A stretch of 43,575 bases of DNA from NCBI GenBank assembly GCA_964589835.1, contig CAZPUU010000002.1, positions 1 through 43,575 of the forward strand, given 5' to 3'. A program made the translations under genes and the position numbers. This stretch comes from an uncultured Gammaproteobacteria bacterium (GTDB lineage: Bacteria; Patescibacteriota; Microgenomatia; Levybacterales; GWA1-39-11). Positions 8,590 through 41,373 of this stretch are shown here, piece after piece. The stretch's first letter is position 1. Every line of letters starts with the position of its first letter. A model generated the notes under the pieces. It was not told where the DNA came from. It did no database searches and was given only the letters and a program-made list of their open reading frames with translations.

Positions 8590-9726
8590 ATGAAAAAACT
8601 CTTCATTCTACTCATCATTCTTTTAATTATTGCGTTTTTCTACGATGGATTAAGCAGATCTAACGTTCTTCCCGGACTTCTTTCTTCTCAAAAAGTAATG
8701 GAGAGCAAAGTGGAACTTCTGCGAGAAGAGTCAAATGTGATAAATGTTGTCAAAGAAGTGAGTCCGAGTGTTATTACAATTGCCATCAAAAATCCGGTCA
8801 CTTCATTCGATACGAGCCCTTTTTCCTTTTTCTTCGATAGAGAACCGAGTCCCGAGCCTGACACAGAAAAAGAGCAGGAACAATATATAGGAACGGGGTT
8901 TGTCATCAAGAAAGAAGGAATTATCGTCACAAACAAGCATGTGGTAAGCTCCCAAACAGAATATACCGTTATTGATGAAAAGGGGAATAAATATGAAGTG
9001 GACAAGATTTACCGTGACCCCTCAAACGATATCGCAATTCTTTCGGTAAAAAATGTCCCTGCAAAAGGGCTTCCCACCATATCCCTCGGAACCTCCTCAA
9101 ATTTACAGGTTGGACAGAGTGTCATCGCCATAGGAACTGCTCTTGGTGAATTTAGAAATACCGTCACAACAGGTGTCGTATCCGGACTGGGCCGTGGGAT
9201 TACCGCCGGAAGCGCATATGAAGGGTTTGCCGAAAGACTGGATAATGTCATACAAACAGACGCAGCAATCAACCCCGGTAATTCCGGAGGGCCGTTACTT
9301 AATGCCCGCGGGCAAGTTATAGGTGTCAATACTGCCGTTTCTTCTCAAGGACAAAATATAGGATTTGCAATTCCTATTGATCTGGTAAAGGATTCTTTGA
9401 ATAATTTCAATCAAACAGGGCAATTCACCCGCCCATACCTAGGGGTCAGTTACAGCATAATTTCAAAAAGAGCCGCACTATTAAACGAACTCCCCCAAGG
9501 CGCACTCATCCAACAGGTTATTCCCGACTCTTCGGCATCCGATGCTCAGATCAAAGTCGGAGACATCTTAACTAAAATCGACGGGGCACAAATCAATGAC
9601 ACTAACGCAACGCTTGCCGTACTGATATCAAAGAAAAAAGTAGGAGATACAATTATTGTAACTATATTCAGAGATGGGGAATCAAAAGACATTGAAGTAA
9701 AACTGAAAGAAGCACCATCACAATAG
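8590..9726 (+). CDS. htrA: HtrA/DegP-family serine protease with PDZ domain
   Basis: 378 aa. N-terminal TM anchor, catalytic triad context TNKHVV / NDIAIL / GNSGGPLL, C-terminal PDZ (VGDILTKIDG). Confidence 0.9.
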   Translation: MKKLFILLIILLIIAFFYDGLSRSNVLPGLLSSQKVMESKVELLREESNVINVVKEVSPSVITIAIKNPVTSFDTSPFSFFFDREPSPEPDTEKEQEQYIGTGFVIKKEGIIVTNKHVVSSQTEYTVIDEKGNKYEVDKIYRDPSNDIAILSVKNVPAKGLPTISLGTSSNLQVGQSVIAIGTALGEFRNTVTTGVVSGLGRGITAGSAYEGFAERLDNVIQTDAAINPGNSGGPLLNARGQVIGVNTAVSSQGQNIGFAIPIDLVKDSLNNFNQTGQFTRPYLGVSYSIISKRAALLNELPQGALIQQVIPDSSASDAQIKVGDILTKIDGAQINDTNATLAVLISKKKVGDTIIVTIFRDGESKDIEVKLKEAPSQ

Positions 9727-9803
9727 ATCATCATCTTTTTTCATTGAAGCTATTACATAAACGCATCATTTACCATTAACCAAGAATCATTTATTATTAG
9801 GGT

Positions 9804-10163
9804 ATGTCTGACAGAAATTCAATTGGTGGAGCTCTTTCCGATCTTGCGAAAGAAACGGTGAAGCAGGTAGTAAGTGCTCCACTTACAATAGCAAAGGGAA
9901 TTCCGGGTCAAGTTGTAAACCGTGACTCTGAGGAAATTGCCGCAAAAAAGAAAGCCGAAAAGGTTGCAACTTTCCACAGAATAAAGGAAATTGAGGCGGA
10001 AATGTCTCAAATCCGAACACAAAATCAACAAAAAGAACAAGCTACTACTCCTTCGTATAAAAAAACCTTGGAGTCGATTGCTTCACGAGGTCACAAAAAA
10101 CTCGACGAAGCCTCACGCCAGGCAATTGGAAAATCCGAACAAGGCCGCAATTTCAAGGGATAA
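9804..10163 (+). CDS. hypothetical protein
   Basis: 119-aa ORF in an otherwise empty intergenic interval. Charged and low-complexity; no motif recognised. Confidence 0.45.
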   Translation: MSDRNSIGGALSDLAKETVKQVVSAPLTIAKGIPGQVVNRDSEEIAAKKKAEKVATFHRIKEIEAEMSQIRTQNQQKEQATTPSYKKTLESIASRGHKKLDEASRQAIGKSEQGRNFKG

Positions 10164-10202
10164 CGGTTTGTTTTCTTTCTACTATCAATTATAATTCCCG
10201 CT

Positions 10203-11018
10203 ATGTAAGAACGTCTTTCCATTGTCAGTCCTCAAGAAACTGTAACCCGCGGGAATCTTACCATTCATACGGGTGAAGCCGTAAGGCAGGACCTGAAAAA
10301 GAGCGGGGATCAAGGGTGGGATTTCAACCAGGGAAATCCGGAATTTTGGAGACATAGCGACAAGCTACTAGTCCCCGGTGGAAGGCTGCTTGATCTGGGC
10401 GCAGGATTTGGAAGAAGTCTCCGATATTTCTCTTTGCACGGAATGACTGTCGATGCCTACGAAAAAGACCCTGTCATAAGCGTGGTTCTTGATGAAATAA
10501 ACAACCAATATCCTCGTGTAGTCAACGTATTTAACACCGATGTCGCTACAGCCAGACTTACCCCAAGCTATTATGACACCGTAATGATGGAATCAGTTTT
10601 TCAACATTTTATTTCTGCAAAAGATGCGTACCAAGTTATGAAAAAAGGTTTTGATTCACTCAAACCGGGGGGATATGCCTACCTCAGAGCTGTGGGCACA
10701 CACGACTCTGCATTTGAATGGTTTCAAGGTGCCGCCAATAGTCCTTATAGCCGCGTTGAGGAGCTGAGTAAAAATTGCTTTATTGGAACCTGTCATTGCA
10801 GCGGCGAAGAAAAGGTTGAACCAATGTTGTTCTTTGACCCTTTGGAGTTGCCTCTCTTTTGGGAGCAAAACGGAATGAAATTAGTTGATGTTCAAATTCT
10901 GCCGCAACAAGATGGATTTAACATTATGTATGGAGAAACGTATGACGATGGCTCACCACCTGAAAACCGTAAGGGCATGATTGGTGGATTTATTACACTT
11001 ATCGGAAGAAAACAATAA
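10203..11018 (+). pseudogene. TehB-like class I SAM-dependent methyltransferase with a disrupted or non-canonical start
   Basis: The track ORF starts at TTG 10434, but the SAM-binding motif LLDLGAGFGR (10386-10415) lies upstream in the same open frame, which is open from 10209. That frame has no ATG/GTG/TTG between 10209 and 10434. An in-frame ATG at 10203 is immediately followed by TAA (10206). Confidence 0.5.
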
Positions 11019-11060
11019 CCAAAACTTGCTTCCTACCCCCCTAAAACGTACAATATCTCT

Positions 11061-12248
11061 ATGAAAATAGAGCCAAGAACTCTCAAAGGCTTTCGTGATT
11101 TTTTACCAAAGGAAGCACGAAAGAGGCAATATGTTATAGAAACCCTGAAAAAGGTATTTGAGTCTTATGGTTTTGAACCACTTGAGACCCCAACTCTTGA
11201 ATACGAAGATATTCTGACCGGAAAATACGGCGAAGAAGGAGACAAACTCATGTACCGCTTTGAGGATAACGGACTACGACGCGTTGCGATGCGCTATGAT
11301 CAAACCGTTCCGCTTGCCCGCGTTGTTGCGCAGTATCAAAATGCACTTCCCTTCCCCTTCAAGAGATATCAAATTCAAAATGTGTGGAGAGCTGACAATA
11401 CGCAAAGAGGACGCTTCCGTGAATTTTTGCAGTGCGACATTGATACGGTCGGAAATGGGCATGTCGGAACCGATGCCGAAATCTTGGCAGTTGTAAATAA
11501 ATCTTTACAAAAACTTGGTTTTACCAATTACAAAATTCTTATTAACGACCGGGCAAACTTTGAGGGAATTGACCAAAAAGCGGTTAGTGTTATAGACAAA
11601 CTTGAGAAAATTTCCGAGGAAGGCGTCATACTAGAGTTAGAGAAAAAAGGATTTGACCCCAATATCCTTGAGCAGATAAAACAAAAAGCACCAACCGAGC
11701 GCCTACAAATTATCCTGAACAATAGCGATGTTACCGGCCCCAACGTAGCATATTCCCCAACACTTGCACGCGGACTCGATTACTACACCGGGCTTATCAT
11801 TGAGGTGGAAATTGAAGGCTTTGACGCAGGATCTGTTGGAGGCGGAGGAAGATATGATGGGCTTATAGGTATGTTTTCCAATCAAGAATACCCTGCGGTT
11901 GGATTTGCCTTCGGATTTGACCGAATTATGGAAGCTATGGAGGAAAAAGGATTATTCCCAACCAATTTAACGACAACGAAAGTTCTGGTTGCCGTTGAGT
12001 TTTCCGAACTCGAGAATACTTCTTACAAAATTAGCGACATGCTTCGCGCGAAAAATATAAACGTAGAGACATATCTCGATAACCAAGCTCAACTTGAAAA
12101 ACAGTTTAAATATGCTGAGAAAAAAGAAATTCCTTATGTTATTGTGCCTATTGATAATCTAACCGTAGAACTCCGTACGAAATCTCTGGCAGGGGAAATC
12201 GTCAAAAAAACTGTTAATATAGAAAGCCTGCCAAATGAGATTATCTAA
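11061..12248 (+). CDS. hisS: histidyl-tRNA synthetase
   Basis: 395 aa. Class II motifs RYDQTVPLAR, FREFLQCDID, GGGGRYDGL and AVGFAFGFDRI. Confidence 0.9.
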   Translation: MKIEPRTLKGFRDFLPKEARKRQYVIETLKKVFESYGFEPLETPTLEYEDILTGKYGEEGDKLMYRFEDNGLRRVAMRYDQTVPLARVVAQYQNALPFPFKRYQIQNVWRADNTQRGRFREFLQCDIDTVGNGHVGTDAEILAVVNKSLQKLGFTNYKILINDRANFEGIDQKAVSVIDKLEKISEEGVILELEKKGFDPNILEQIKQKAPTERLQIILNNSDVTGPNVAYSPTLARGLDYYTGLIIEVEIEGFDAGSVGGGGRYDGLIGMFSNQEYPAVGFAFGFDRIMEAMEEKGLFPTNLTTTKVLVAVEFSELENTSYKISDMLRAKNINVETYLDNQAQLEKQFKYAEKKEIPYVIVPIDNLTVELRTKSLAGEIVKKTVNIESLPNEII

Positions 12249-13143
12249 ACACCAACTCGCCGTACTTGCGCTCATCGTCACCAATCTCATCTGGGGCGCT
12301 GCACCTCCGATTTTCAAGTGGGCGCTTGCCGATATCCATCCGTATACCCTCGCTTTTCTCCGCTTTTTCTTACCCGCTCTTATCATGCTTCCCTTTGTTA
12401 GAAACGATCTTAAAATCAAAAAAAAGGACTGGTTAAAAATGCTTGCTGTAGGATTTTTCGGGGTAACGGTCAACATACTTTTCTTCTTCCAAGGGCTAAT
12501 CATCGCTCCGAGTATAAATGCTGCACTTATCGCAAGTTCTGCTCCGATATTTATCGTACTGTTCTCGCTTTTCTTTTTGCGAGAAAAACCGAAAAGAAAA
12601 GTAGTAACCGGATCGCTTATCGGGCTAGTAGGTGTACTTTTGGTACTAAGTGCCCCTCTAATTCTCAATGGAAAAATTGCCGCACTCGGAAATCTATTTT
12701 ATGTCGTTGCTATGCTTGGTGGAGTTGTTGCTGTGATTCTTGTCAGACAAATTGCAAAAAGAAATTCAGCTCAAAGCATCACATTCTGGTCTTTTCTGAT
12801 CGGAAGCATCGGCTTTGTACCCTTTTTCGTACAGGAAGTGGGTCAATATGGTTTTTTGCCCAATTTGACATCGCACGGATTGATAGGGCTCGTATTCGGC
12901 ATATTTCTATCCTCATTGGCCGCTTACTTCCTGCAAACCTGGGCACTTAAATATCTGGCAGCTGCCGATGTAAGTGTATTTACCTATATTGATCCGGTCG
13001 TGACAATACTCGTCGCAGCGCCTCTTCTTGGGGAATTTCCGGACACTACTTTTGTCATTGGATCTGTTTTGGTAATTTTAGGAATTTTTCTGGCCGAAGG
13101 CAGAGTACACTACCACCCGTTCCATCTCTTTTTGAAGAAGTAA
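12235..13143 (+). CDS. EamA/DMT-family transporter
   Basis: 302 aa, hydrophobic throughout with a two-fold repeated multi-TM layout typical of EamA proteins. Overlaps the hisS end by 14 nt. Confidence 0.8.
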   Translation: MRLSKHQLAVLALIVTNLIWGAAPPIFKWALADIHPYTLAFLRFFLPALIMLPFVRNDLKIKKKDWLKMLAVGFFGVTVNILFFFQGLIIAPSINAALIASSAPIFIVLFSLFFLREKPKRKVVTGSLIGLVGVLLVLSAPLILNGKIAALGNLFYVVAMLGGVVAVILVRQIAKRNSAQSITFWSFLIGSIGFVPFFVQEVGQYGFLPNLTSHGLIGLVFGIFLSSLAAYFLQTWALKYLAAADVSVFTYIDPVVTILVAAPLLGEFPDTTFVIGSVLVILGIFLAEGRVHYHPFHLFLKK

Positions 13144-13182
13144 TAATTGCGTTTCAAGCTATTTTCGGTTATAATAACTCCA

Positions 13183-13473
13183 ATGAAAGCGCAAATCCAT
13201 CCAAAATATTACGATGCAGCCGTTACCTGCTCTTGCGGGAATGCCTTTACTGTGGGCTCAACAAGTGAAAGAATTAGCGTCGAGCTTTGCTACAATTGCC
13301 ACCCTTTCTACACCGGGCAGCAAAAATTCGTCGACACCGCTTCTAGAATTGAGAAATTCCAAAAGAAAATGGACGCTGCACGTCCTGTTATTAAAAAGGC
13401 TCAAAAAGAAACAGCCGACGATTCAGCTCCAAAGACCCTTCGCGAAATGCTCGAAGCCCTCAAGAAAGGTTAA
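13183..13473 (+). CDS. rpmE: 50S ribosomal protein L31 (Zn-ribbon type) with C-terminal extension
   Basis: The ATG at 13183 gives MKAQIHPKYY. CSCG...CYNCHPFYTGQQK is the L31 signature. A lysine-rich C-terminal tail follows. Confidence 0.9.
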   Translation: MKAQIHPKYYDAAVTCSCGNAFTVGSTSERISVELCYNCHPFYTGQQKFVDTASRIEKFQKKMDAARPVIKKAQKETADDSAPKTLREMLEALKKG

Positions 13474-31739: not shown

Positions 31740-31793
31740 GCATATTATATTACAATCGTATCTGAATTTAAACCATCACAGGCGAAATACTAA

Positions 31794-31822
31794 TTGATCT
31801 GTCAAATATCCGGGCGTATAAT
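31794..31822 (+). promoter_or_regulatory. sigma70-like promoter of the GC-rich non-coding unit
   Basis: TTGATC (31794-31799), exactly 17-nt spacer, consensus TATAAT (31817-31822). Confidence 0.5.
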
Positions 31823-31828
31823 CTCCGT

Positions 31829-32590
31829 AACTGAAGTCCAAAGCTGCCAGCTTTGGGCGCAGGAGTTCTTTGACTTTATCGCATGTTCCATCCGGAAACC
31901 ACCGGATGTTGCAGTTGAATCCTATCAGCAGGAGGGTACGCGTATGTCGCTCACCGGTCTTTCCGGTAACAAGGGTCCTCCGGGATCCGCATCCTAACCG
32001 CGAAATGCGGTACGCAAAGGCGAAGATCAGATCTTCGCAGAAAGGACCGAAGCGTCGACGGATGGGGCTGACGGCCCCAAAACCGAGAGCTCATCCCCCG
32101 TGGAAAATCTACATGGACTTGCCGTCCGTACCTGCCAGGTACGGCTCTGCCGTCCATTTCTATCGCCAACGGCGAGCAAGTCGCGGGGACTCGACTCCTT
32201 TTGCCCGCTCTGTTGGCGGCAATGTCGATGGATCGGGTGCTTGCACCCGGTTCTCTCCCTGACCGGTGGGGGTTCTCCGGGACCCCCTTCCGGTTTTTCC
32301 AACTGCAAGCCGGGGCAGATTCCCGGCAACATCCTCAATTTTGGAGTATGGGAACATGTCCAAGATACGCTACGTGACGTCGGCCTCCGCCGTCACCTGA
32401 CGTTTCGCCGGGGGTCGCCGCATACCTTAGCGGCACCGCTCCCGGAAGGGAGCAACAAAAAGACACGGGGCAAAAGTCCTGATCCGTCGGTCACCCGAAT
32501 GCGCGGTGATACTCCGGTTCTCGGAACCGGCACCAACGGTGCCACCCCGTCTCGTCCCCGGCCGTCTCCACAAGAGGCGGCCGGGGGTTT
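31829..32590 (+). ncRNA. candidate large structured non-coding RNA of unknown class (about 760 nt)
   Basis: A 959-nt intergenic gap lies between rpsU and the HIT gene. Its core is about 60% GC (38 of 60 nt at 32221-32280) against AT-rich surroundings. It contains only overlapping Arg/Pro/Gly-rich ORFs in several frames on both strands. It holds at least 10 strong hairpins and is bracketed by a consensus promoter and a 13-bp GC hairpin. Confidence 0.45.
32556..32590 (+). terminator. terminator-like hairpin closing the GC-rich unit
   Basis: CCCCGGCCGTCTC-CACAA-GAGGCGGCCGGGG (13 bp including one G-U) followed by GTTTGAT. The U-tract is short. Confidence 0.4.
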
Positions 32591-32652
32591 GATAAATCCC
32601 CAGCAAAAATTACACCGTTATTTCTCTATAAATTGATTTCTACCAAAAGCTT

Positions 32653-32985
32653 TTACTGTATCGGTACATGAAGACCCGTTGGGCCAATGAGGTGAAAATG
32701 AAGATGATTGATAACTTGTCCCCCGCCGCCATTAACGATAATTTTATACCCTTTTCCGACAAGTTCGGTCTCCTCAATTATTTTCTGAATTCCTTTTCTT
32801 ACTGAAGCAAGGATTTCATCATCGTACAATTTTTCAAAGCTATCGACATGCTCCTTAGGTATAAATAAAACATGCACTTTTGCAACAGGGTGTATGTCAT
32901 CAAAAGCCAGTACATTCGCATCCTTGAAGCGGAATTCTTTCGGGATATCCCCCTTTACTATTTCGCAAAATATACAATCCGTCAT
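32653..32985 (-). CDS. HIT-family nucleotide hydrolase/transferase
   Basis: 110 aa. CIFCEI N-terminus and histidine triad HLHFHLIG. Confidence 0.9.
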   Translation of the reverse strand: MTDCIFCEIVKGDIPKEFRFKDANVLAFDDIHPVAKVHVLFIPKEHVDSFEKLYDDEILASVRKGIQKIIEETELVGKGYKIIVNGGGGQVINHLHFHLIGPTGLHVPIQ

Positions 32986-34720: not shown

Positions 34721-35821
34721 TTACCTTCCTATTTTAAATTCTACTACGTCTCCGTCGTGCATGATGTAATCGCGTCCTTGAAGTCCTGCCTTTCCTTTTT
34801 CTCGTGCGCCCTTCCAGCCATTGCAGTCAACAAAATCGGAAAAACTCACAACCTCGGCTTTTATAAATTTATCCATAAAATCCGTGTGGATTTCACCGGC
34901 CGCCTCAACAGCGGTTGCACCAATTTTGACTGTCCATGCCCGTACCTCTTTTTCTCCGCAGGTAAGATATGACATGAGCCCCAATTTCTCGTACGCCTTT
35001 TGAATCAGCCTTTCAAGCCCGGATTTTTCAACGCCAAGTTCTTTCAAATACTCCTTTGCATCCTCATCACCTAATGCCGCAAGCTCCGATTCGATTTTTG
35101 CGCTTATCACGACAAAATTTTCCTTTTCCATACCCATAGCCTCCGCGTATTCGGAAATAATTGCGTCGAATTTTTCCTCCTGATAGTCTCCTTCTGTGAC
35201 ATTAAGAACGATAAGCTCGGGTTTTGAAGTCAAAAGCGATAACTGTTTTGACGCTGCCTCTTCCCCTTCGGTAAGCAAAGCGCTTCTTGCGGGAAGCCCT
35301 GTATTCATATGATTTTTGAGTTTTGTAACTGCGGAATTGAGAGTATTGTCGGTCCTTAGAGTTTTATCATTTACTTTCTGTAACGTATCAAGATCTGCAA
35401 GAAGAAGTTCGGTTGTGATTGTCTCGTAATCCTCTTTTATACCAACGCTCCCCTCACGGATCACGTCTTTGTCTTCAAAAGCCCTCACAACGTGCGCGAT
35501 CACTTTTACCTCCCGTATGTGCGAGAGAAATTTGTTGCCAAGACCTTCCCCTTCGTGCGCACCTTTGACTAACCCCGCAATATCAACGAATTCGATCATG
35601 GCTGGCTTGAGAGGCGGAAGCTCCGCCATCCCTTCCTCATTCTTTGTGATTTCGGCAAGTGTAGTGATGCGCTCATCAGGGACAGCAACCACCCCGACAT
35701 TTGGCTCTATGGTTGCAAATGGATAATTTGCAGCCAAAGCCGCCTGCTTTTTGAGCAAAGCATTGAACAATGTAGACTTTCCTACATTCGGCAACCCAAC
35801 AATTCCTACAGACAAATTCAT
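34721..35821 (-). CDS. ychF: ribosome-binding ATPase YchF
   Basis: 366 aa. G1 [18 protein letters not shown]3 DIAGLVKGA, and a C-terminal TGS-like domain ([31 protein letters not shown]). Confidence 0.93.
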
Positions 35822-35868
35822 AGTTTATTTTGAATGCAGTCCTGCGCAACGCCGCAGGATAGATTCAT
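35818..35868 (-). other. 16-codon scar ORF beginning with a truncated ychF start; its stop overlaps the ychF ATG
   Basis: ATGAATCTATCC... encodes [16 protein letters not shown]. Its TGA (35818-35820) overlaps the ychF ATG (35819-35821) as ATGA. On the minus strand, TATAAT lies 7 nt upstream of its ATG. It contains the hairpin CCTGCG-N6-CGCAGG (35841-35858). Confidence 0.4.
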
Positions 35869-35920
35869 GAAGGTAATTATAACAAAACTAATATGATTTT
35901 AGTTCACTAAGCTTGAATCA

Positions 35921-37738
35921 TTATGGGTTTACCACCTCAATCATAAATTTATTTACTTCTTCCGCGGGAGAGAATGCTGGACCATGTAATGAGCACAGCA
36001 ACTCTGCTGTTGGAAGGAGGGGAACTTGACTAACCAGAGAATTGGCCACGTTGCTGCCCATTCTCCTTTTTGTTAAATGTTCGAATGCTTTAACTTTTCC
36101 CAAGTCTTTTGGAAGAAAAACATGTTTTAGCGGCTTGATAAGAACAGGATTATCAAAACCCCCTGAAGTCATTGATATACCAGTTGCATAACTAGGCATA
36201 AATGAAGACATAACTGCCTGAATTTCTGGATAATTAGATTTCAGATACCCAAATGCAAGAGAAAACATGCTACTACTCGTATTACCTGGTGTGCCCGGCC
36301 TACTATAAAGTCGTGTAAGGTCGTAACATTTGCGAGGATCGTATCCATTAAGTATTAATGTGTTTGCCTTATAATCTCTGTCTATTTTCTCAAAAGCAAG
36401 GGCTGAGAATGGAAGCTCTTCTCCTTCGACAAACAAACCAAATGAGATATCAGCCCTTGGGGTATGTATATAGTGTAAGTCGTTATGAATTTGAGCAGCC
36501 AGTGCAGGATCGATTTCCTCAAAACGCAAACCTACACTGTCGCTAACTGACGTAATCCCCTCCTCTTTTACAGCCCTCACGGTACCATTTTTCCTCTGAA
36601 TTACCCAACCCGGTTCAGCAAAAATGCCCCGAGGCGTAAGAATGCTTTCAAGAGGTAGTGGACTTCTCTCCATTCTCTCTTGGATAACTGCAGCCTGTTC
36701 AGAAATTACAAATTCAACAAGGTCATCATTCATGGAATAACTTCTCACAATATCGGGATCAGTTTTTAATATATTGCGCCAATCATGATAATTTCCATTT
36801 GCTTGTAAATATTGCTCCAGTTCCTGACCCGCGTGAAAAAGCGATTTAACAGGAAATGTAGTCAGTCTAAAAAGCACCTGATACTTTAAATCTTGGGGAT
36901 CACATAACATCTCTGTTTTTCCAAGAAAATCACCAGTCTGCCGTGCAACACACTCCCTAATATAAGTCATTAATGGGTCTCTTGGCCAATCTGATAGTTT
37001 AAACTTCGGTTCAAGATTTATTTTTCTATTTTCGATACTCCTTTTTAATGCTTTCTGTTGCTCCAAAATTGCCTCGGTAAATACTATCTCTCTTAACAAA
37101 GCAAACTTTGCACTCGTCCTATTTCCACCTAAGAATACTTTGCTTGCTTTTCTTCTAATGTCAGGCTTTACTTCTGTTTCCTTGTCACATATAACTATTC
37201 CTAAACCGTTTTCGACCAATTGTTCTGGAGCAGACTGGGACACAACAATGCCGACATTTTCTGCCAAATATTTCTTTACAAATCCAAGCACCCTTCCATA
37301 TATTGCCCTATCATTCTTCAATCGAGTTATTTCAGCTACTTCTCCATCAAACTGAGATTTTCCTTTCTCGCTCGTATCTTTATCCTCATCGCTACGAAAG
37401 GCTATCCGAAAACTATCAGGACCTTTCTCAATTTGAATATCATCAAGTATATTCGATACAATCTGTCCTCTTTCTTTTTTATAATTATTTCCTGCACGTA
37501 GTTCTATACCATTCTGAGCCAATTTGTAATTGATAGCACCGAATAACAAATCTAATGAGAGCTCTTTAAAGCCCAAATCTCGGGCACCCTCTAACATTTC
37601 AGGTGTTGCTCCACTTTCCGATTCGCAAGATGTAATACCAATATTCATTCTCTGCTGAAAGCTTCTTTTCATGTAAGGATCAAGCGAAAAGTAGGCAGCA
37701 CCAACTTGACTACTAATTAAAGCTTCTGATGAATTCAT
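35921..37738 (-). CDS. 605-aa protein of unknown function; C-terminal domain resembles Mom/GNAT-like acyltransferase folds
   Basis: Long clean ORF. The C-terminal pattern LHYIHTPRADISFGLF...SALAFEK...DLTRLYS...NTSSSMFS...AVMSSFMPSYATGISMTSGGF recalls GNAT/Mom-like proteins. This is by eye only and low certainty. Confidence 0.6.
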   Translation of the reverse strand: MNSSEALISSQVGAAYFSLDPYMKRSFQQRMNIGITSCESESGATPEMLEGARDLGFKELSLDLLFGAINYKLAQNGIELRAGNNYKKERGQIVSNILDDIQIEKGPDSFRIAFRSDEDKDTSEKGKSQFDGEVAEITRLKNDRAIYGRVLGFVKKYLAENVGIVVSQSAPEQLVENGLGIVICDKETEVKPDIRRKASKVFLGGNRTSAKFALLREIVFTEAILEQQKALKRSIENRKINLEPKFKLSDWPRDPLMTYIRECVARQTGDFLGKTEMLCDPQDLKYQVLFRLTTFPVKSLFHAGQELEQYLQANGNYHDWRNILKTDPDIVRSYSMNDDLVEFVISEQAAVIQERMERSPLPLESILTPRGIFAEPGWVIQRKNGTVRAVKEEGITSVSDSVGLRFEEIDPALAAQIHNDLHYIHTPRADISFGLFVEGEELPFSALAFEKIDRDYKANTLILNGYDPRKCYDLTRLYSRPGTPGNTSSSMFSLAFGYLKSNYPEIQAVMSSFMPSYATGISMTSGGFDNPVLIKPLKHVFLPKDLGKVKAFEHLTKRRMGSNVANSLVSQVPLLPTAELLCSLHGPAFSPAEEVNKFMIEVVNP

Positions 37739-37846
37739 AATATTTGGGTATTATAGGATAGAAATGTTAAGCCGTCAAATGTACCATTATTTGAATTCCT
37801 AACCTATCACATATATAATCAACAGATAATTATCGAATCTCTTCGC

Positions 37847-38410
37847 ATGACTGACATATATTTTGTAACTAGCAATAACTATAAGTTCAGAAAGTTTTCG
37901 GAATCTCTATCGACGACTCAGTTTAATTTTATTCAGCTCAATGAAACAACTCCAGAGATACAGTCTACCAATAATTCAGATGTAGCAGAATTTTCAGCAA
38001 AATGGGCATCTCAAACATTCAATAAACCTGTTATATGTGAAGATGTTGGACTTTACATCGATGCTCTCCATGGATTTCCGGGACCATATTTATCTCATAT
38101 TGAAAAATGGATAGAAACTGATGGCTTTCTTAATCTTATGTCTGGAGTAGGTAACCGAGAAGCACATTGGGAATATTGTGTTGCATTCTGCGTACCAGGG
38201 TCAAAACCAGTTTCATTTAGTACTTTCCCAAGAGGATCTATTGCCTACACTGCCAAAGGAAAAGACGGATGGTATGCCGATAAGATTTTCTTACCTGAGA
38301 ACGAAAAACTAACCATCGCAGAAATGCTTGACCTGAAGATATATAAAAGAAATAAAGATCACTACGAAAAACTTCTGGAATATCTCAAAAAAGAATATCA
38401 ATTTTCATAA
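37847..38410 (+). CDS. Ham1/ITPase-family non-canonical NTP pyrophosphatase-like protein
   Basis: 187 aa. IYFVTSNNYKFRKF, EDVGLYIDALHGFPGPY, EAHWEYCVAF, and a C-terminal KRNKDHYEKL (SHR-like region). Opposite strand to its neighbours. Confidence 0.7.
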   Translation: MTDIYFVTSNNYKFRKFSESLSTTQFNFIQLNETTPEIQSTNNSDVAEFSAKWASQTFNKPVICEDVGLYIDALHGFPGPYLSHIEKWIETDGFLNLMSGVGNREAHWEYCVAFCVPGSKPVSFSTFPRGSIAYTAKGKDGWYADKIFLPENEKLTIAEMLDLKIYKRNKDHYEKLLEYLKKEYQFS

Positions 38411-39034
38411 TAATAAATCGCGGCATTCCTGTACCATTTCACAAGCAATGGAATCAGTAAATGAGGGATCATTTTTCACAATAACCATCCCCGCACCCAA
38501 TCTTGTTGCCATTGCGTATGTTCCCAATCTAGCAATTGTTTGATGTAGATTTATGTCATCCATAAGCTCTATCTCCCTTTTCCTTTTATCCTGATTTTCA
38601 ATTCTCCACTGGCTAATTTGATCCGGATCCGACTCTATAAACAAATACTCGAGTGCCTTTGTACGCAATTCGCTTTGAGGGTTCATAACATATGAACCTC
38701 GTTGCTTGAAAACGACATGAGTCATCTGAAGACTGGGTTGAAGACTTATAAGTCTATCAAGCGTTCGCTGAATATATGCATCTAGGTCGTCAAGCTGCAT
38801 ATCTTTTAACGCGTCTTGTGTAATGAAATCTGCATCAGCAAGTGATTGGCGGATGCTTGCAAGTAACTCAGATCCAAAATTGAAAATTGCTATTTTGCCA
38901 CCTAGTAATTCGGGTTCGAGCTCGCTTGCCTTTTTAACTAGATAGTCCTTTCCCGCACCTGATATTCCCGTAACGGTAATAATCCTATTTTTATCAGAAG
39001 CATTTTCGACTGGTCGTATCCGCTCAATTTGCAT
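38405..39034 (-). CDS. P-loop nucleotide kinase resembling archaeal-type adenylate kinase (AdkA family)
   Basis: 209 aa. Walker A TVTGISGAGKDY. Collinear by eye with archaeal AdkA (MTHVVF at the DTH position, INLHQ at the IEQHQ position, GAGMVIVKND at the GATVKIVQN position). Confidence 0.55.
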   Translation of the reverse strand: MQIERIRPVENASDKNRIITVTGISGAGKDYLVKKASELEPELLGGKIAIFNFGSELLASIRQSLADADFITQDALKDMQLDDLDAYIQRTLDRLISLQPSLQMTHVVFKQRGSYVMNPQSELRTKALEYLFIESDPDQISQWRIENQDKRKREIELMDDINLHQTIARLGTYAMATRLGAGMVIVKNDPSFTDSIACEMVQECRDLLL

Positions 39035-39040
39035 ATTTTC

Positions 39041-40048
39041 CTAAGTGAGTGGTACTTCTGATTTTGGTAGACTTAATAACTCCTGAGTATATCTTTTTCC
39101 CAACTCTTCTGTCCAAATATCCCTCATTGCTTGCTGATTGTCCATCAACTGAATGTGATACTCTTTTTCCCTTTGTACGGTCTGAGGAAAATCAATTACC
39201 TTCGAGGGAAATACCCGAAGAAGCATATTTGGATGGACCTCCTCTTGAATTTTATCCATCAGAGAGGGAATCGCTTCTCTAGCTTCCGCGACCGATTCTC
39301 CAAGCAAGGTAATATAAGTATAGGTATCTATACCTGCTTCCACCAACCTTCGCAATGCTTCTATTTGCAGATCGAAATATTCCTGTGCTGCACCCGTATT
39401 TCTTGAAAAAGACTGAGGGCTTATTCCCTTTATGCATGTGGCTCGGGCATAATTGGGGTATTTCGCAAATCGATCGAGTTGCTCAGGGGTTAACTTCTCA
39501 AAGAGAAAGAGCGAACTTAGATTATCATCCTGCCATAAAAAATGAGTCTTATCCATGCCTCTTTTTTCAAGTTCATCCATCATCCAAAGCGTCCATTCTG
39601 GCACAAGATCAGGTTGACCACCCGTTAGGTAAAATGTAGGAGCTTGGACCTCTTCTTGTTCATATAAATCTATTAAATCACTTGGAGACTTAAAATCACC
39701 CCGTGAAGAGTCAGCCTTTAAATATCTAAAGTCGACAAAACAATACCAACATCTAAAATTACAGGCTCCAACTCTGAATATTTGCGTAAGTGATGCATCC
39801 TCTTCCGATATTCCTAGCTTTGCAGGAACTAATTCCGGAAGTATATCAATATCTGGCCAGTCAGGTCTTTGCGTAACGGCCCGCCTCACTATTCCGAATC
39901 CGTCACAGTTAATGTATGCATGAGTACTATCAACCAGCTCTTCTTGCGGAATTTTTGATATGAAAATTTCTCTTGATTCAGGACGAATTATCCTTTCCCG
40001 AAAAGACTCTCCGAGTGCCACCGAATCAAAACCACCCTCCTTTCGCAT
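39041..40048 (-). CDS. radical SAM enzyme
   Basis: 335 aa. Canonical CxxxCxxC cluster motif GACNFRCWYCF and a GGE-like LTGGQPDL. An N-terminal extension of about 90 aa precedes the cluster motif. Confidence 0.8.
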   Translation of the reverse strand: MRKEGGFDSVALGESFRERIIRPESREIFISKIPQEELVDSTHAYINCDGFGIVRRAVTQRPDWPDIDILPELVPAKLGISEEDASLTQIFRVGACNFRCWYCFVDFRYLKADSSRGDFKSPSDLIDLYEQEEVQAPTFYLTGGQPDLVPEWTLWMMDELEKRGMDKTHFLWQDDNLSSLFLFEKLTPEQLDRFAKYPNYARATCIKGISPQSFSRNTGAAQEYFDLQIEALRRLVEAGIDTYTYITLLGESVAEAREAIPSLMDKIQEEVHPNMLLRVFPSKVIDFPQTVQREKEYHIQLMDNQQAMRDIWTEELGKRYTQELLSLPKSEVPLT

Positions 40049-40089
40049 AACTATATGATACCATCACGTGTCAAGAACAAATATCGTAT

Positions 40090-40182
40090 CTAAGCCAAAG
40101 CCGCCTGCTTTTTGAGTAAAGCATTGAACAATGTAGACTTTCCTACATTTGGCAACCCAACAATTCCTACTGATAGATTCAT
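40090..40182 (-). pseudogene. ychF: displaced 5' fragment of ychF (first 30 codons, then a stop)
   Basis: 40093-40182 matches 35732-35821 with 5 mismatches in 90 nt, all synonymous. It encodes [30 protein letters not shown] and is followed immediately by TAG. Similarity ends abruptly at codon 30. Confidence 0.85.
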
Positions 40183-41373
40183 ATTTCAACTAATCCTTTC
40201 ATAATAATTATATTAGTCATTTCTCTTAAGACGCAACGTAGTAGCATGTAGTTTTTTGATAAAATCGTCAAATATCGCCAGGGTTCCTACAACAAATTTC
40301 TTATTAGAAAATATTGGATCTTCGGATGGCACTTCGTCTTGATTCAACATGCCAGAAAGAGGTGAAACATGAATAATTTTATGTCTAAAATTGAATACTT
40401 TTTTAATTTTACTAACATCTTTAGAAGCGATATTCAATTCATCGAAATCTATATCATATGTAATTTTAAATACTTTTTTGCATAATGCATAATCTTGAAA
40501 ATTAATTAAGCCTTTCCCCTTCTTACCGTTTACGAGATATTCTATCAATACTAAATTGTCTTTAACAACCGCTGCTTTTATAGCCTCCTGCTTTTTAAGA
40601 GAGAATAACTTAGCTACTAATTCTTCAAGCTCTGGCTTGATACCTTCTTGCTCCAATTCCCTAAATCTTGCCTTCGAATATGTTTCAAACCCTGTTATTA
40701 AAATCGATAATGCTTGGTTAGCTACGATAGACTCAAAAATATATCCTTCGATAGAAGTTCCATTTATAAGTTTCTCGACTGAGAATATCGAATTTTTCCA
40801 ATTATCTAATGCTGAGGGTTTAAGAGTTTGCTTACCATTTTCGTAAACGCTTAATGCCATAACTTCAACGCCCTCATCCCCTACTTGAACAACTTTTCCA
40901 TCCTCGCCTATTTGAAATTTTTTTTGAGAAATTTCACCTTCACTTGTTACCAACTTTCCTCCTTCAACATCTTTTGGTCCAATACTTAATCGTGTCTCAT
41001 TCGGAGACCACACAAAATAAAAGAAAACTTTTTTACTTGGAATGACTGCATTTAGATCAATCGTTGCCACTCTAGTTCCGGTTCCTGGTGAAGAGTGATA
41101 AAATTTTGCTTCAAAATTATCGGTTCTTTCAAGAAGAAAATAATGTTTACCCGATATAATTTCAAAAATCTTATCCCCAGGGATATCTCGATTAAATAGT
41201 TCGTCATTGTCAAACGTAAACGTAAATGCTGCAGCACCCTCTTGCCGTTTAAGAGCATCACGAATTTGTTCTATTATTTCTGATGATAAATTTTTCATAT
41301 ACGTTTTTCTTCTTTAGGTTAGGCAATATAAAACGAGAACAAAATTCTAAAATTGAGTTAACAACCTGACTTT
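40183..41373 (-). mobile_element. inserted cassette 2 in the ychF 5' region (single gene)
   Basis: Bounded by the 30-codon ychF fragment (40093-40182) and a third ychF start copy (41374-41391). Confidence 0.45.
40213..41298 (-). CDS. 361-aa hypothetical protein with C-terminal R-x4-H (HEPN-like) motif
   Basis: Clean ORF. VFNFRHKIIHVSP lies near the C-terminus within a helical region. The N-terminal half is beta-rich and unassigned. Confidence 0.55.
   Translation of the reverse strand: MKNLSSEIIEQIRDALKRQEGAAAFTFTFDNDELFNRDIPGDKIFEIISGKHYFLLERTDNFEAKFYHSSPGTGTRVATIDLNAVIPSKKVFFYFVWSPNETRLSIGPKDVEGGKLVTSEGEISQKKFQIGEDGKVVQVGDEGVEVMALSVYENGKQTLKPSALDNWKNSIFSVEKLINGTSIEGYIFESIVANQALSILITGFETYSKARFRELEQEGIKPELEELVAKLFSLKKQEAIKAAVVKDNLVLIEYLVNGKKGKGLINFQDYALCKKVFKITYDIDFDELNIASKDVSKIKKVFNFRHKIIHVSPLSGMLNQDEVPSEDPIFSNKKFVVGTLAIFDDFIKKLHATTLRLKRND

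Follow-up and report, generated by a model that had tools for sequence, protein, structure and literature searches.

The window, the whole stretch of 43,575 nucleotides that was analyzed, contains a mobile cassette of about 4.3 kb in the start of ychF. Its four genes encode a Mom-like protein, a Ham1-type pyrophosphatase, a nucleotide kinase, and a radical SAM enzyme (Table 1). The first three form a conserved core, and the radical SAM enzyme is accessory. By analogy with T4-style pathways, the cassette may encode a self-contained route to a non-canonical purine nucleotide, acting on free nucleotides; this reading is tentative, and we give it somewhat less than an even chance. The purine would probably be adenine-derived. 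The four open reading frames, the motifs (CNFRCWYC, TGGQPDL, and GISGAGKD), and the spacing described in an earlier sequence-only reading were all found in place. Its domain calls (Radical_SAM, AdkA-like kinase, Ham1, and Mom) were reproduced by profile searches, and that of Mom also by structure.

Table 1. Features of the cassette and of the 605-aa protein, in window positions.
Feature	Positions	Strand	Basis or remark
Direct-repeat copy 1	35732..35825	-	First 90 nt of intact ychF + 4 nt upstream; one insertion border
Gene of 605-aa three-domain Mom-like protein	35921..37738	-	Pfam Mom + AF2/Foldseek
Mom-type GNAT domain (residues 401-605)	35924-36538		Pfam Mom + 8bv8 match
Helical domain (residues 236-400)	36539-37033		Invariant D280, D283, Q287, F290, L292, Q348
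CMP-kinase-like domain, dead P-loop (residues 1-235)	37034-37738		Foldseek + P-loop comparison
Divergent intergenic region, Mom-like gene / Ham1	37739..37846	.	Back-to-back promoter-like sites
Ham1/ITPase-family NTP pyrophosphatase, 187 aa	37847..38410	+	PF01725
AdkA-like P-loop nucleotide kinase, 209 aa	38405..39034	-	NF003122
Radical SAM enzyme, 335 aa, unnamed family	39041..40048	-	PF04055
Direct-repeat copy 2, orphan ychF 5' fragment	40093..40186	-	ATG + 29 codons, then TAG; other insertion border

A repeat search showed that the ychF 5' end is present on both sides of the cassette, as direct repeats of 94 nt that are 94% identical. All in-frame differences between the two copies were synonymous when the two sequences were read by eye, and an equivalent repeat pair of 100 nt was found at locus L012. 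The gene at the insertion was identified as ychF by Pfam (YchF-GTPase_C, E 7e-33; MMR_HSR1, E 3e-23). The 5' end of the intact gene and the orphan fragment flank the cassette as direct repeats, which bears out the insertion at ychF that had been proposed. The cassette interval shares about 99-100% DNA identity with a second genome, where the flanks are about 42-86% identical. In a Levybacteria genome, the four genes are found in unchanged order with 51-77% protein identity and different flanks; in the Levybacteria relative L001, the cassette adjoins tRNA-Cys, a different insertion site. The four genes are a horizontally mobile unit, and their recurrence in Levybacteria and the second genome shows that the grouping is beyond chance. 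Within the cassette, the kinase gene starts 6 nt downstream of the radical SAM stop codon, and the convergent kinase and Ham1 genes overlap by 6 nt. Promoter-like sites were found on the minus strand at 37778-37750 (TTGACG-17-TATAAT, 11/12 matches) and on the plus strand at 37791-37819 (10/12 matches). They are weak evidence, because the total site count in the region was not above that of shuffled controls.

The Ham1-type protein matches PF01725 (E 9e-26), and a PDB sequence search identified PH1917 (E 5e-28), Mj0226 (E 1e-26), and KomB (E 1.6e-15) as its nearest relatives. The catalytic motifs are intact, and the base-recognition motifs are altered: GWYADKIF replaces GFGYDPIF and KDHY replaces ISHR, and these changes are kept within the clade. 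The kinase matches, over its full length, both the archaeal adenylate kinase family NF003122 (E 8.6e-15) and archaeal adenylate kinases in the PDB (E 4e-9). Its cassette homologues keep the GxGKD motif of the P-loop and the LID-type Arg motifs. The NCBIfam equivalog scores were all far below the cut-offs: 54.7 bits vs 155 for the kinase (NF003122), 136 bits vs 203 for Ham1 (NF011396), and 110 vs 145. The kinase and Ham1 families include housekeeping members, which would fit a chance adjacency of an ordinary adenylate kinase, an RdgB/ITPase, a cofactor maturase, and an acetyltransferase. This explanation is scarcely credible: besides the low equivalog scores, it is contradicted by co-occurrence and fusions of the genes elsewhere and by their joint travel as a repeat-bounded cassette at two insertion sites. 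Housekeeping hits combined with a lack of co-occurrence, which would have spoken against the sequence-only reading, were looked for, and this combination was not seen.

The Pfam Mom profile (PF25680) matches residues 404-511 of the 605-aa protein (E 1e-6, 29.0 bits vs the gathering score of 27.1), over only the first half of the profile. The best PDB match of the AF2 model (pLDDT 92.4) in Foldseek was 8bv8, the crystal structure of Mom from phage Mu (E 1e-7, TMt 0.59-0.65); the next matches were cytidylate kinases. The Mom call was thus independently confirmed by the predicted structure; by sequence search, the Mom-like family profile failed to reach 8bv8. The P-loop is degenerate in all members of the 600-aa subfamily, and a CMP-kinase fold with a dead P-loop across the subfamily fits a nucleotide-binding module. 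In the hhalign alignment to Mu Mom, H48/Y49, R101, and S114 correspond to H422/Y423, R476, and S489, and the Mom-like family is invariant at the positions equivalent to Mom H58/Y59, R111, and S124. In a manual sequence alignment made without structural superposition, Mom D149 corresponds to the invariant P515 and R151 to Y517, Mom Y159 corresponds to M, and the HTH-like DNA-binding insertion is shortened, with much of it not conserved. In Mom itself, D149 and R151 lie on the acceptor side, around the flipped dA (PMC13219725). As aligned, the 605-aa protein appears to retain only part of the essential residue set of Mom. The Mom/GNAT-like C-terminus of the sequence-only reading stands on the GNAT fold, Pfam, and 8bv8, qualified by the partial residue set and by two extra domains, one of them CMP-kinase-like and dead. 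Phages widely carry Mom domains, which protect them against restriction, and Mom-REase fusions exist.

The core trio is found again in other ultra-small (CPR) bacteria and in a single bona fide phage, and the close Mom-like subfamily adjoins a kinase and Ham1 in every contig with room. Clustering of the neighbours across 17 loci showed that the trio families and the radical SAM alone recur; no polymerase, glycosylase, or other installation enzyme was linked, and no effector, nuclease, or sensor recurred with the core. The radical SAM gene is present at about 5 of the 13 distinct loci (about a third), and most Mom-like trios have none nearby. The proposed four-gene system thus holds for the Mom-like/Ham1/kinase trio, and the quartet is not obligate. 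Of the radical SAM/kinase/Ham1 trio whose conservation had been put forward for checking, the kinase and Ham1 recur, with the Mom-like protein in the core instead of the radical SAM. In a distant 533-aa Mom-like subfamily, neither a kinase nor Ham1 was detected next to many of the members. Ham1::Mom-like fusions were found in P0183-P0186, L006, and L106, and P0227 consists of Ham1, a linker, and a Mom-like part; in the fusion forms, Ham1 takes the place that the N-terminal domain has in the 605-aa protein. P0295, P0307, and P0326 carry the Mom-like module fused to a Cytidylate_kin domain whose Walker A is intact. Kinases of three families unrelated to each other occur in the kinase slot, which suggests that the activity itself is needed. 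The phage (TerL, E 1.9e-39) carries a kinase and Ham1::Mom pair near nucleotide-sugar pathway and packaging genes. Co-occurrence, fusions, and domain families agree with the earlier proposal that the genes are functionally linked and nucleotide-centred.

The linkage of the genes, their fusions, the mobility, the folds, and the conserved residues are observed; the substrate, donor, product, sequence of steps, and biological role described next are inferred. The Ham1-type pyrophosphatase would cleave an NTP or dNTP down to its monophosphate, and the nucleotide might be held on the dead CMP-kinase-like domain of the Mom-like protein. The base would then receive an acyl or aminoacyl group from the Mom-type GNAT domain. 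The chemistry of Mom depends on aminoacyl-tRNA (PMC13219725), and by analogy the donor could be an aminoacyl-tRNA. The modified NMP would be re-phosphorylated to the NDP by the AdkA-like kinase and returned to the pool. In some lineages only, the radical SAM enzyme, whose gene is co-transcribed with that of the kinase, might perform an optional second tailoring step. Nucleic acid is the likely destination, where the product would shield bacterial or phage DNA in virus-host or restriction conflicts.

Alternatively, the 605-aa protein might modify adenine in DNA (or RNA/tRNA) in the manner of Mom, with an aminoacyl-tRNA or acyl-CoA donor. The extra domains would bind the target, Ham1 and the kinase would police or recycle released nucleotides, and the radical SAM enzyme would tailor the adduct on the polymer. 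Mu Mom, the best structural match, works after replication, on dsDNA rather than free nucleotides (PMC13219725). The four key Mom residues retained, invariant in the family, would still allow direct DNA/RNA modification, which counts against the free-nucleotide reading, and the wide occurrence of protective Mom domains in phages points the same way. However, a kinase with an NTP pyrophosphatase would form a futile cycle if pool hygiene were the sole purpose, and a transferase fused to Ham1 or to an active CMP kinase is hard to explain with a polymer substrate. Mom D149, R151, and much of the HTH-like insertion are not conserved in the manual alignment, and there is no REase partner, unlike in the Mom-REase fusions. 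Modification after replication is considered rather unlikely.

The radical SAM enzyme matches PF04055 (E 7e-12) and has CxxxCxxC at residues 96-103 (C96/C100/C103), an N-terminal extension of about 90 aa with the invariant N47-C48-x-G50-x-G52, and, at C205, another cysteine that does not vary. Its family, with at least 491 homologues, has the motifs NCxGxG, GGQPDL, and DDNLS. In the Foldseek search, the AF2 model (pLDDT 94.2) matched the generic radical SAM core only, with PFL-AE as the best match (TMq 0.47). The enzyme is not viperin, QueE, or Elp3. The viperin HMM gave 22.6 bits vs the cut-off of 180, and the fold TM-score of about 0.44 corresponds to the generic core; the by-eye impression that it is unlike viperin or QueE was right, and the viperin analogy found no support. 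No Elp3 structure was present among the 50 fold matches listed. A split Elp3-like system, in which the radical SAM and GNAT proteins carboxymethylate a base via an acetyl-CoA-derived radical, as Elongator does for U34, is very improbable. The two genes share the cassette, and a trans-acting radical SAM enzyme was once hypothesised for Mom (PMC7261163). However, the Mom reaction is a transfer from Gly-tRNA with rearrangement, unrelated to Elongator chemistry (PMC13219725), the trios mostly occur without the radical SAM gene, and most members of the radical SAM family have no GNAT partner.

BlsE, the radical SAM enzyme of the blasticidin S pathway, was among the closer fold matches, with the highest identity (19%), but was no better than other generic radical SAM hits. 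A diffusible aminoacyl- or acyl-nucleoside(tide), serving as an antimetabolite or signal and not installed in nucleic acid, would be in line with this match and with the absence of a linked installation enzyme; PacB-type tRNA-dependent GNATs act in nucleoside natural-product pathways (PMC13219725). Such a small-molecule product seems quite improbable, since exporter, immunity, and further tailoring genes did not recur across the 17 loci, and the phage version near packaging genes is atypical for antibiotic clusters.

Prokaryotic viperins make chain-terminating nucleotides. In an anti-phage defence or abortive infection system, the radical SAM enzyme, fed by the kinase, might make a poisonous or chain-terminating nucleotide; Ham1 would shield the host, and the Mom-like protein would sense or further modify the nucleotide. 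In 60 of about 80 loci of other genomes, the radical SAM family lies in the effector slot directly downstream of an RmrA-like Xre/M78 regulator (about 486 aa, HTH_3 + Peptidase_M78, PADLOC RmrA E 2.5e-11), often with DUF6932 (PADLOC candidate PDC-M63A). This usual RosmerTA-like context suggests a toxin/effector role, which fits defence as well as tailoring. In Rudanella, a relative of the enzyme shares its operon with a VakA-like kinase (PADLOC E 1.8e-10) and adjoins CBASS, and dCTP-deaminase-like genes lie beside family members in 13 loci; these repeated ties to nucleotide enzymes were counted for the free-nucleotide pathway. The resemblance of Ham1 to KomB and the mobility of the cassette are also consistent with defence. 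However, the radical SAM gene is missing from about two thirds of the loci with the core trio, the cassette carries no regulator or sensor, and neither the HMM nor the fold makes the radical SAM enzyme a viperin. No PADLOC model matches the kinase, Ham1, or the Mom-like protein; the sole match was a weak pVip match on the radical SAM N-terminus. The core pair in a real phage, with no recurring effector, nuclease, or sensor, favours a modification pathway over classical defence, which we regard as unlikely. Of the earlier reading of modification or defence, the first part is thereby favoured. As that reading had also stated, the combination is no named system: none of the PADLOC models covers it, the equivalogs are below cut-off, and the source names say 'hypothetical'.

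Several known systems share features with the cassette. The dITP signalling of Kongming (KomA/KomB/KomC) involves a HAM1-like protein. The cassette Ham1 is homologous to KomB; however, archaeal Ham1 NTPases are much closer, and no KomA-like deaminase or KomC-like SIR2 lies in or near the cassette. RosmerTA consists of RmrA (an Xre-HTH + M78 peptidase regulator) and a variable RmrT effector. The radical SAM family lies beside RmrA-like proteins elsewhere, in putative defence loci, whereas the window cassette has no RmrA-like gene and its radical SAM enzyme matches no PADLOC RmrT model. As in pVip/VakA, the radical SAM gene is immediately upstream of a nucleotide kinase, and the Rudanella operon is similar; but viperin HMMs match only the cluster-binding N-terminus (PADLOC E 4e-6, about 70 aa), and the N-terminal extension and the invariant motifs are particular to the family. 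Phage Mu Mom, a GNAT that depends on tRNA, turns dA in dsDNA into N6-carbamoylmethyl-dA. The C-terminal ~200 aa of the 605-aa protein share its Mom-type GNAT fold, with the dead CMP-kinase-like and conserved helical domains added N-terminally; Mom acts alone, whereas the close Mom-like subfamily is linked to the kinase and Ham1. The T4-type pre-replicative pathway uses the dCTPase gp56, the dCMP hydroxymethylase gp42, and the dNMP kinase gp1, and PurZ/MazZ/DatZ form the aminoadenine pathway. The cassette families (Ham1, Mom-like GNAT, and AdkA-like) are unrelated to both, and the carriers are mostly bacteria rather than phages. Unlike in the T4-type pathway, the predicted target is a purine, not a pyrimidine, and there would be an optional radical SAM step. 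Nevertheless, the cassette would share with both pathways the logic of three activities, an NTP pyrophosphatase, an NMP base modifier, and an NMP kinase, and its core pair is also phage-borne.

The four genes form a cassette bordered by ychF-derived repeats. All four ORFs were present where the sequence-only reading had placed them, with its 6-nt gap, its 6-nt convergent overlap and the motifs that it had listed. Profile scans against Pfam and NCBIfam also bore out every one of its domain calls, including a Radical_SAM domain (E 7e-12) and a Ham1 domain (E 9e-26). In the NCBIfam scan, no cassette protein matched an equivalog at its cut-off. The PADLOC scan, covering the four proteins and both upstream neighbours, gave nothing beyond weak pVip (prokaryotic viperin) matches, confined to the N-terminal, cluster-binding part of the radical SAM protein. 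A promoter scan gave an overall count not above chance.

Coordinates of the cassette genes and the flanking repeat copies
Feature	Position	Strand	Description
Radical SAM gene	39041-40048	-	ORF
Kinase gene	38405-39034	-	ORF
Ham1 gene	37847-38410	+	ORF
605-aa protein gene	35921-37738	-	ORF
Repeat copy 1	35732-35825		start of intact ychF
Repeat copy 2	40093-40186		orphan ychF 5' fragment, 30 codons, TAG end

The four genes make up a mobile unit. They are flanked by 94-nt direct repeats, 94% identical to each other; ychF 5'-end sequence lies on both sides, and the insertion site is the one recognised earlier. As read from the sequences, the in-frame differences between the orphan fragment and copy 1 are all synonymous. 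In 100-bp windows, L012 (a second genome, syntenic with the window) is 97-100% identical over about 35800-40100, whereas ychF is only 42-86% identical and the sequence past 40200 is unalignable; an equivalent repeat pair of 100 nt is present. In a Levybacteria relative (L001/L002), the same four genes keep their order and orientation, with protein identities of 77%, 51%, 65-66% and 54%. The cassette of this relative sits between tRNA-Cys, with two extra partial 3'-end copies, and tRNA-Ile, and its neighbours are unrelated to those in the window. In L001 (7637-7879 and 12490-12563), the tRNA-Cys is just upstream of the cassette and the tRNA-Ile downstream; the partial copies are 31 nt long, 81% and 74% identical. 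This layout is the signature of an integration site other than ychF, the one used in the window. Three-gene relatives are also repeat-flanked: L007 has 124-nt repeats at a distance of 4.7 kb, and L010 has perfect 28-nt repeats that enclose an rve integrase as well. No integrase was found within the cassette itself.

Several features were observed around the insertion site. Just beyond the cassette repeat, where the GC content of the region is lowest (0.31-0.36), lies a 361-aa ORF (40213-41298, minus strand) with no match in Pfam, NCBIfam or PADLOC. It was rejected as a fifth component, being outside the repeats, absent from L012 and L001, and without family hits. In L012, two other ORFs, of 373 aa and 378 aa, stand in its place between SLT and the cassette; the position is therefore a second variable slot beside the insertion site. 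A GC-rich patch at 31750-32750 (0.54-0.60 against about 0.40-0.45 around it) contains only two overlapping ORFs (130 and 178 aa), and no tRNA or Rfam family at the gathering threshold was found in it. The L012 contig (CAYTCO010000002.1) is labelled 'uncultured Gammaproteobacteria bacterium'; the named homologues of the cassette genes come mostly from CPR/Patescibacteria (Levybacteria, Pacebacteria, Dojkabacteria), and the label of L012 is probably wrong.

The four genes had been read as one unit. They do move together as a cassette, but the conserved core is the trio of Mom-like protein, Ham1 and kinase, and the radical SAM gene is present in only about 5 of 13 distinct loci (window/L012, L001, L011, L099 and L107). 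These loci show two gene orders, with the kinase gene directly after the radical SAM gene in both. The 605-aa family is rare, with about 80 clusters at 90% identity; 1.84 billion proteins yielded 223 representative clusters at E <= 1e-3. Wherever the contig has room, members of the close Mom-like subfamily adjoin a P-loop kinase gene and a Ham1 gene. The kinase slot is occupied by three unrelated kinase families, as judged by neighbour clustering. Clustering of all neighbours from 17 loci gave no further recurrent family beyond the trio and the radical SAM gene; the linked genes thus include no nuclease, glycosylase, polymerase, transporter or regulator.

Gene fusions were found among the relatives. 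Ham1::Mom-like fusions occur in P0183-P0186, L006 and L106, and P0227 consists of Ham1, a linker and a Mom-like part. In P0295, P0307 and P0326, an N-terminal Cytidylate_kin domain (E-values down to 1e-13) is fused to the Mom-like module, and its Walker A motif is intact (GSVTSGKS, GGAATGKT and GGTATGKS). The contig of L106 (also L154; IMGVR_UViG_3300002460_001159) is a real phage contig, with a large terminase (1.9e-39), a small terminase, endonuclease VII, HNH genes and a spanin. Its kinase and Ham1::Mom-like fusion genes lie directly upstream of a heptose-type nucleotide-sugar pathway (9056-13219), comprising a SIS_2 isomerase, a GHMP kinase, an NTP_transferase, an epimerase and a split transketolase, which sits between this pair and the terminase genes. 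The sugar pathway could serve DNA glycosylation or surface modification. In a distant Mom-like subfamily of about 533 aa, many members (L114-L133, L150) have no detectable kinase or Ham1 neighbours; they have instead a divergently transcribed gene whose product, about 150-170 aa long, matches DUF4406 only weakly and below threshold (such as L118 7554-7997, minus strand). Other members (L008, L134, L139-L146) have a guanylate-kinase-like gene and Ham1.

The 605-aa protein matches the Pfam Mom family (PF25680) at residues 404-511, scoring 29.0 bits (E 1e-6), just above the gathering score of 27.1, over profile positions 2-108 of 202; precomputed PF25680 hits also exist for its family homologues. 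PDB sequence searches with this protein and with the radical SAM protein gave no matches. The top PDB match of the AF2 model (pLDDT 92.4, pTM 0.91) was phage Mu Mom (crystal structure 8bv8; E 1e-7, TMt 0.59-0.65), and the modelled fold is of the Mom-type GNAT kind. Cytidylate kinases were the next PDB fold matches (TMt about 0.54), and we assign these to the N-terminal 235 residues. The would-be P-loop of this domain is degenerate in every member of the 600-aa subfamily (SCESESGAT in the window), which makes the domain a pseudokinase; most plausibly it has been retained for nucleotide binding. The 600-aa subfamily proteins are always accompanied by a separate kinase. The most conserved motif of the family, D280-x-x-D283-L-K-Y-Q287-V-L-F290-R-L292, lies in the helical middle domain. 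In the viral structure library BFVD, phage Mom and NAT_SF proteins headed the match list. The library contains partners for the Mom domain only, including the Mom-REase fusions that are already known (PMC7824862), and the whole 605-aa architecture is absent from it.

Adenine hypermodification has its founding example in Mom. The enzyme takes glycine from Gly-tRNA(Gly) and attaches it to N6 of dA in dsDNA, after which a rearrangement takes place on the base (PMC13219725); this chemistry was settled only in 2026. This tRNA-dependent mechanism supersedes the iron/acetyl-CoA radical model (PMC7261163), and with it the idea that a radical SAM enzyme serves Mom in trans. H58, Y59, R111, S124, D149, R151 and Y159 are important in Mom (numbering of PMC13219725); D149 and R151, which are essential, and Y159 surround the flipped target dA, and an HTH-like insertion at about residues 175-209 is essential for DNA binding (PMC13219725). 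By hhalign, H58/Y59, R111 and S124 correspond to H422/Y423, R476 and S489, all four invariant in the 46-sequence family alignment. The family profile did not reach 8bv8 by sequence, so the mapping past Mom position 136 was done by eye. This manual alignment places D149, R151 and Y159 opposite P515 (invariant), Y517 and M523, in a region outside the blocks aligned by hhalign and Pfam, so that the three appear not to be conserved. Where Mom has its HTH-like insertion, the AF2 model shows a β-hairpin (540-555), then a 4-residue helix and coil (556-576); by the manual alignment, the segment is about 8-10 residues shorter than that of Mom and mostly coil. Judging from these residues, the donor side looks Mom-like and the acceptor side looks different from that of Mom. 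Direct modification of a polymer in the manner of Mom, with pool hygiene left to the other enzymes, is a rival reading that we consider rather unlikely.

The Ham1 protein is closest to archaeal NTPases (PH1917, 5e-28; Mj0226, 1e-26), and also resembles KomB of the Kongming system (1.6e-15). It keeps the superfamily fold and the phosphate/metal motifs (TxNxxK, PEIQ, ED.GL and FPG). The purine-recognition motifs are altered, with GWYADKIF for GF(G/A)YD(P/S)IF and KDHY for ISHR, and these replacements are conserved in its own clade. The motif pattern suggests an active enzyme with a non-canonical substrate. A housekeeping XTP/dITP diphosphatase (RdgB/Ham1) was rejected, since the canonical base-recognition motifs are replaced and the scores lie below the equivalog cut-offs (NF011396, 136 against 203; TIGR00042, 110 against 145). 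The kinase matches archaeal adenylate kinase NF003122 over its full length (E 8.6e-15), but with 54.7 bits against a cut-off of 155. It is collinear with AdkA structures, again over the full length (E 4e-9), and retains GxGKD and an arginine-rich LID-type motif. The kinase is therefore a relative within the AdkA family, not an ortholog. Housekeeping genes that are adjacent by chance would account for the family membership of these two proteins; beside the linkage and fusions of the trio, this explanation is hardly credible.

The radical SAM protein belongs to a large, unnamed family, with at least 491 homologues, and 251 species genomes across many phyla. Its invariants are N47-C48-x-G50-x-G52 in the N-terminal extension, the C96/C100/C103 cluster motif, GGQPDL, DDNLS and C205. 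The model (pLDDT 94.2) matches the generic radical SAM core only (PFL-AE, TMq 0.47; SuiB, 0.48). By eye, the protein had been judged neither viperin nor QueE, and the HMM and fold scores agree. The viperin model NF038283 gave 22.6 bits against a cut-off of 180, over residues 94-166 only, and PADLOC pVip matched about 70 residues (E 4.3e-6); viperin-like structures (TMq 0.41-0.45) were no better than PFL-AE, SuiB or NifB. QueE scored 20.6 bits against a cut-off of 260 (TIGR03963), with TMq 0.28-0.29 for its structures. A split Elp3-like enzyme would pair a radical SAM with a GNAT domain, on the Elongator pattern of an Elp3-type radical SAM domain that works with an acetyl-CoA-binding KAT domain. 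These domains lie here on separate proteins that occur together in only about one third of the trio loci, no Elp3-specific Pfam domain was hit, and no Elp3 structure was among the 50 fold matches listed, so that this reading is very improbable.

In other genomes, the radical SAM homologues have different partners. In 60 of about 80 loci, the gene lies directly downstream of one whose product, about 486 aa long, combines HTH_3 and Peptidase_M78 domains and matches PADLOC RmrA, the regulator of RosmerTA (E 2.5e-11). DUF6932 (the PADLOC candidate PDC-M63A) or DUF4160 is often upstream, and a dCTP-deaminase-like gene adjoins in 13 loci. Among L011-L090, outside CPR, the module of DUF6932 or DUF4160, RmrA-like protein and radical SAM is recurrent (such as L044 7062-8522 and L026 7420-7875), often with a nearby HNH_5 gene or a dCTP-deaminase-like protein bearing a hydrophobic, possibly membrane-spanning C-terminal tail. 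These modules resemble a RosmerTA-type system, undescribed so far, in which a radical SAM enzyme would be the effector. No RmrA-type gene (Xre HTH and M78 peptidase) was found in or beside the window cassette. The CPR clade of the family (at least 49% identity to the window protein) is the one that shares contigs with Mom-like genes. Since the radical SAM elsewhere fills the effector slot of a RosmerTA-like pair, the window cassette joins two modules, the trio and the radical SAM.

In Rudanella, the radical SAM gene lies beside a CBASS operon, and a VakA-like kinase is in the same operon as the radical SAM. The operon of Rudanella lutea (L003 8001-11284) encodes DUF4186, the radical SAM, a 408-aa protein (weak mad2), a 177-aa protein (weak ASCH) and the VakA-like kinase, and directly adjoins the CBASS genes (SMODS-E2, Sa_NUDIX and HNH_5). 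The 408-aa and 177-aa proteins were rejected as equivalents of the Mom-like protein and Ham1, as they are not homologues. Defence by means of a toxic nucleotide would fit such neighbours of the radical SAM homologues; it is unlikely for the cassette, whose constant core is the trio.

The linkage of the trio, the fusions to Ham1 and to active NMP kinases, the dead kinase domain, the interchangeable kinases and the retuned Ham1 together suggest that the working substrate is a free purine nucleotide. Pre-replicative modification of the T4 type follows a logic of pyrophosphatase, base modifier and NMP kinase, and the trio would supply the same three activities. We therefore favour, tentatively, a nucleotide-level hypermodification pathway with optional radical SAM tailoring, whose product would probably end in nucleic acid. 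A small-molecule product is another rival reading; with no transporter linked, we regard it as quite improbable. A more specific form of the favoured pathway is possible, if doubtful: an aminoacyl-tRNA-dependent Mom-type GNAT rebuilt for free purine mononucleotides, which would be the first pre-replicative adenine-hypermodification pathway and make a new DNA adenine. The dead CMP-kinase domain, or the fused Ham1, would hold the nucleotide; Ham1 and the NMP kinase would be the partners, with a new radical SAM tailoring enzyme in some lineages. Such a pathway would spread among CPR bacteria and their phages in the form of a small cassette without an integrase, and its product would be a previously undescribed hypermodified adenine in DNA.

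We regard the cassette as a candidate modification system of the Mom family, novel in its architecture and in its obligatory partners. The earlier view that it is not a named system holds, as there is no PADLOC model for the trio and no source name for the proteins. The literature searched covers Mom, Mom-REase fusions and other radical SAM defence systems, and does not describe the combination; an earlier in-silico mention is possible in the 2009 and 2013 work of Iyer et al., reportedly cited for bacterial 'momylation systems'. Kongming (KomABC) is alike only in that the cassette Ham1 resembles KomB. No KomA deaminase or KomC SIR2 gene was found among the window ORFs and Pfam hits (the PADLOC 2023 library may predate Kongming), and the system was ruled out on architecture, as was Ophion (radical SAM, PHP and PRTase; bioRxiv 10.1101/2025.09.30.679545). 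The mobility of a gene cassette in CPR bacteria is documented here with precise borders, and an uncharacterised, widespread radical SAM family, whose usual partners are RosmerTA-type regulators, is tied to nucleotide chemistry. Relatives of Mom are placed in a very different setting, as part of a multi-domain protein always linked, contig permitting, to an NTP pyrophosphatase and an NMP kinase, sometimes fused to them and sometimes with a radical SAM enzyme alongside. If it acts on the nucleotide pool, the system could supply new modified nucleotides for biotechnology, and would be a purine counterpart to the classical pyrimidine pathways of T4.
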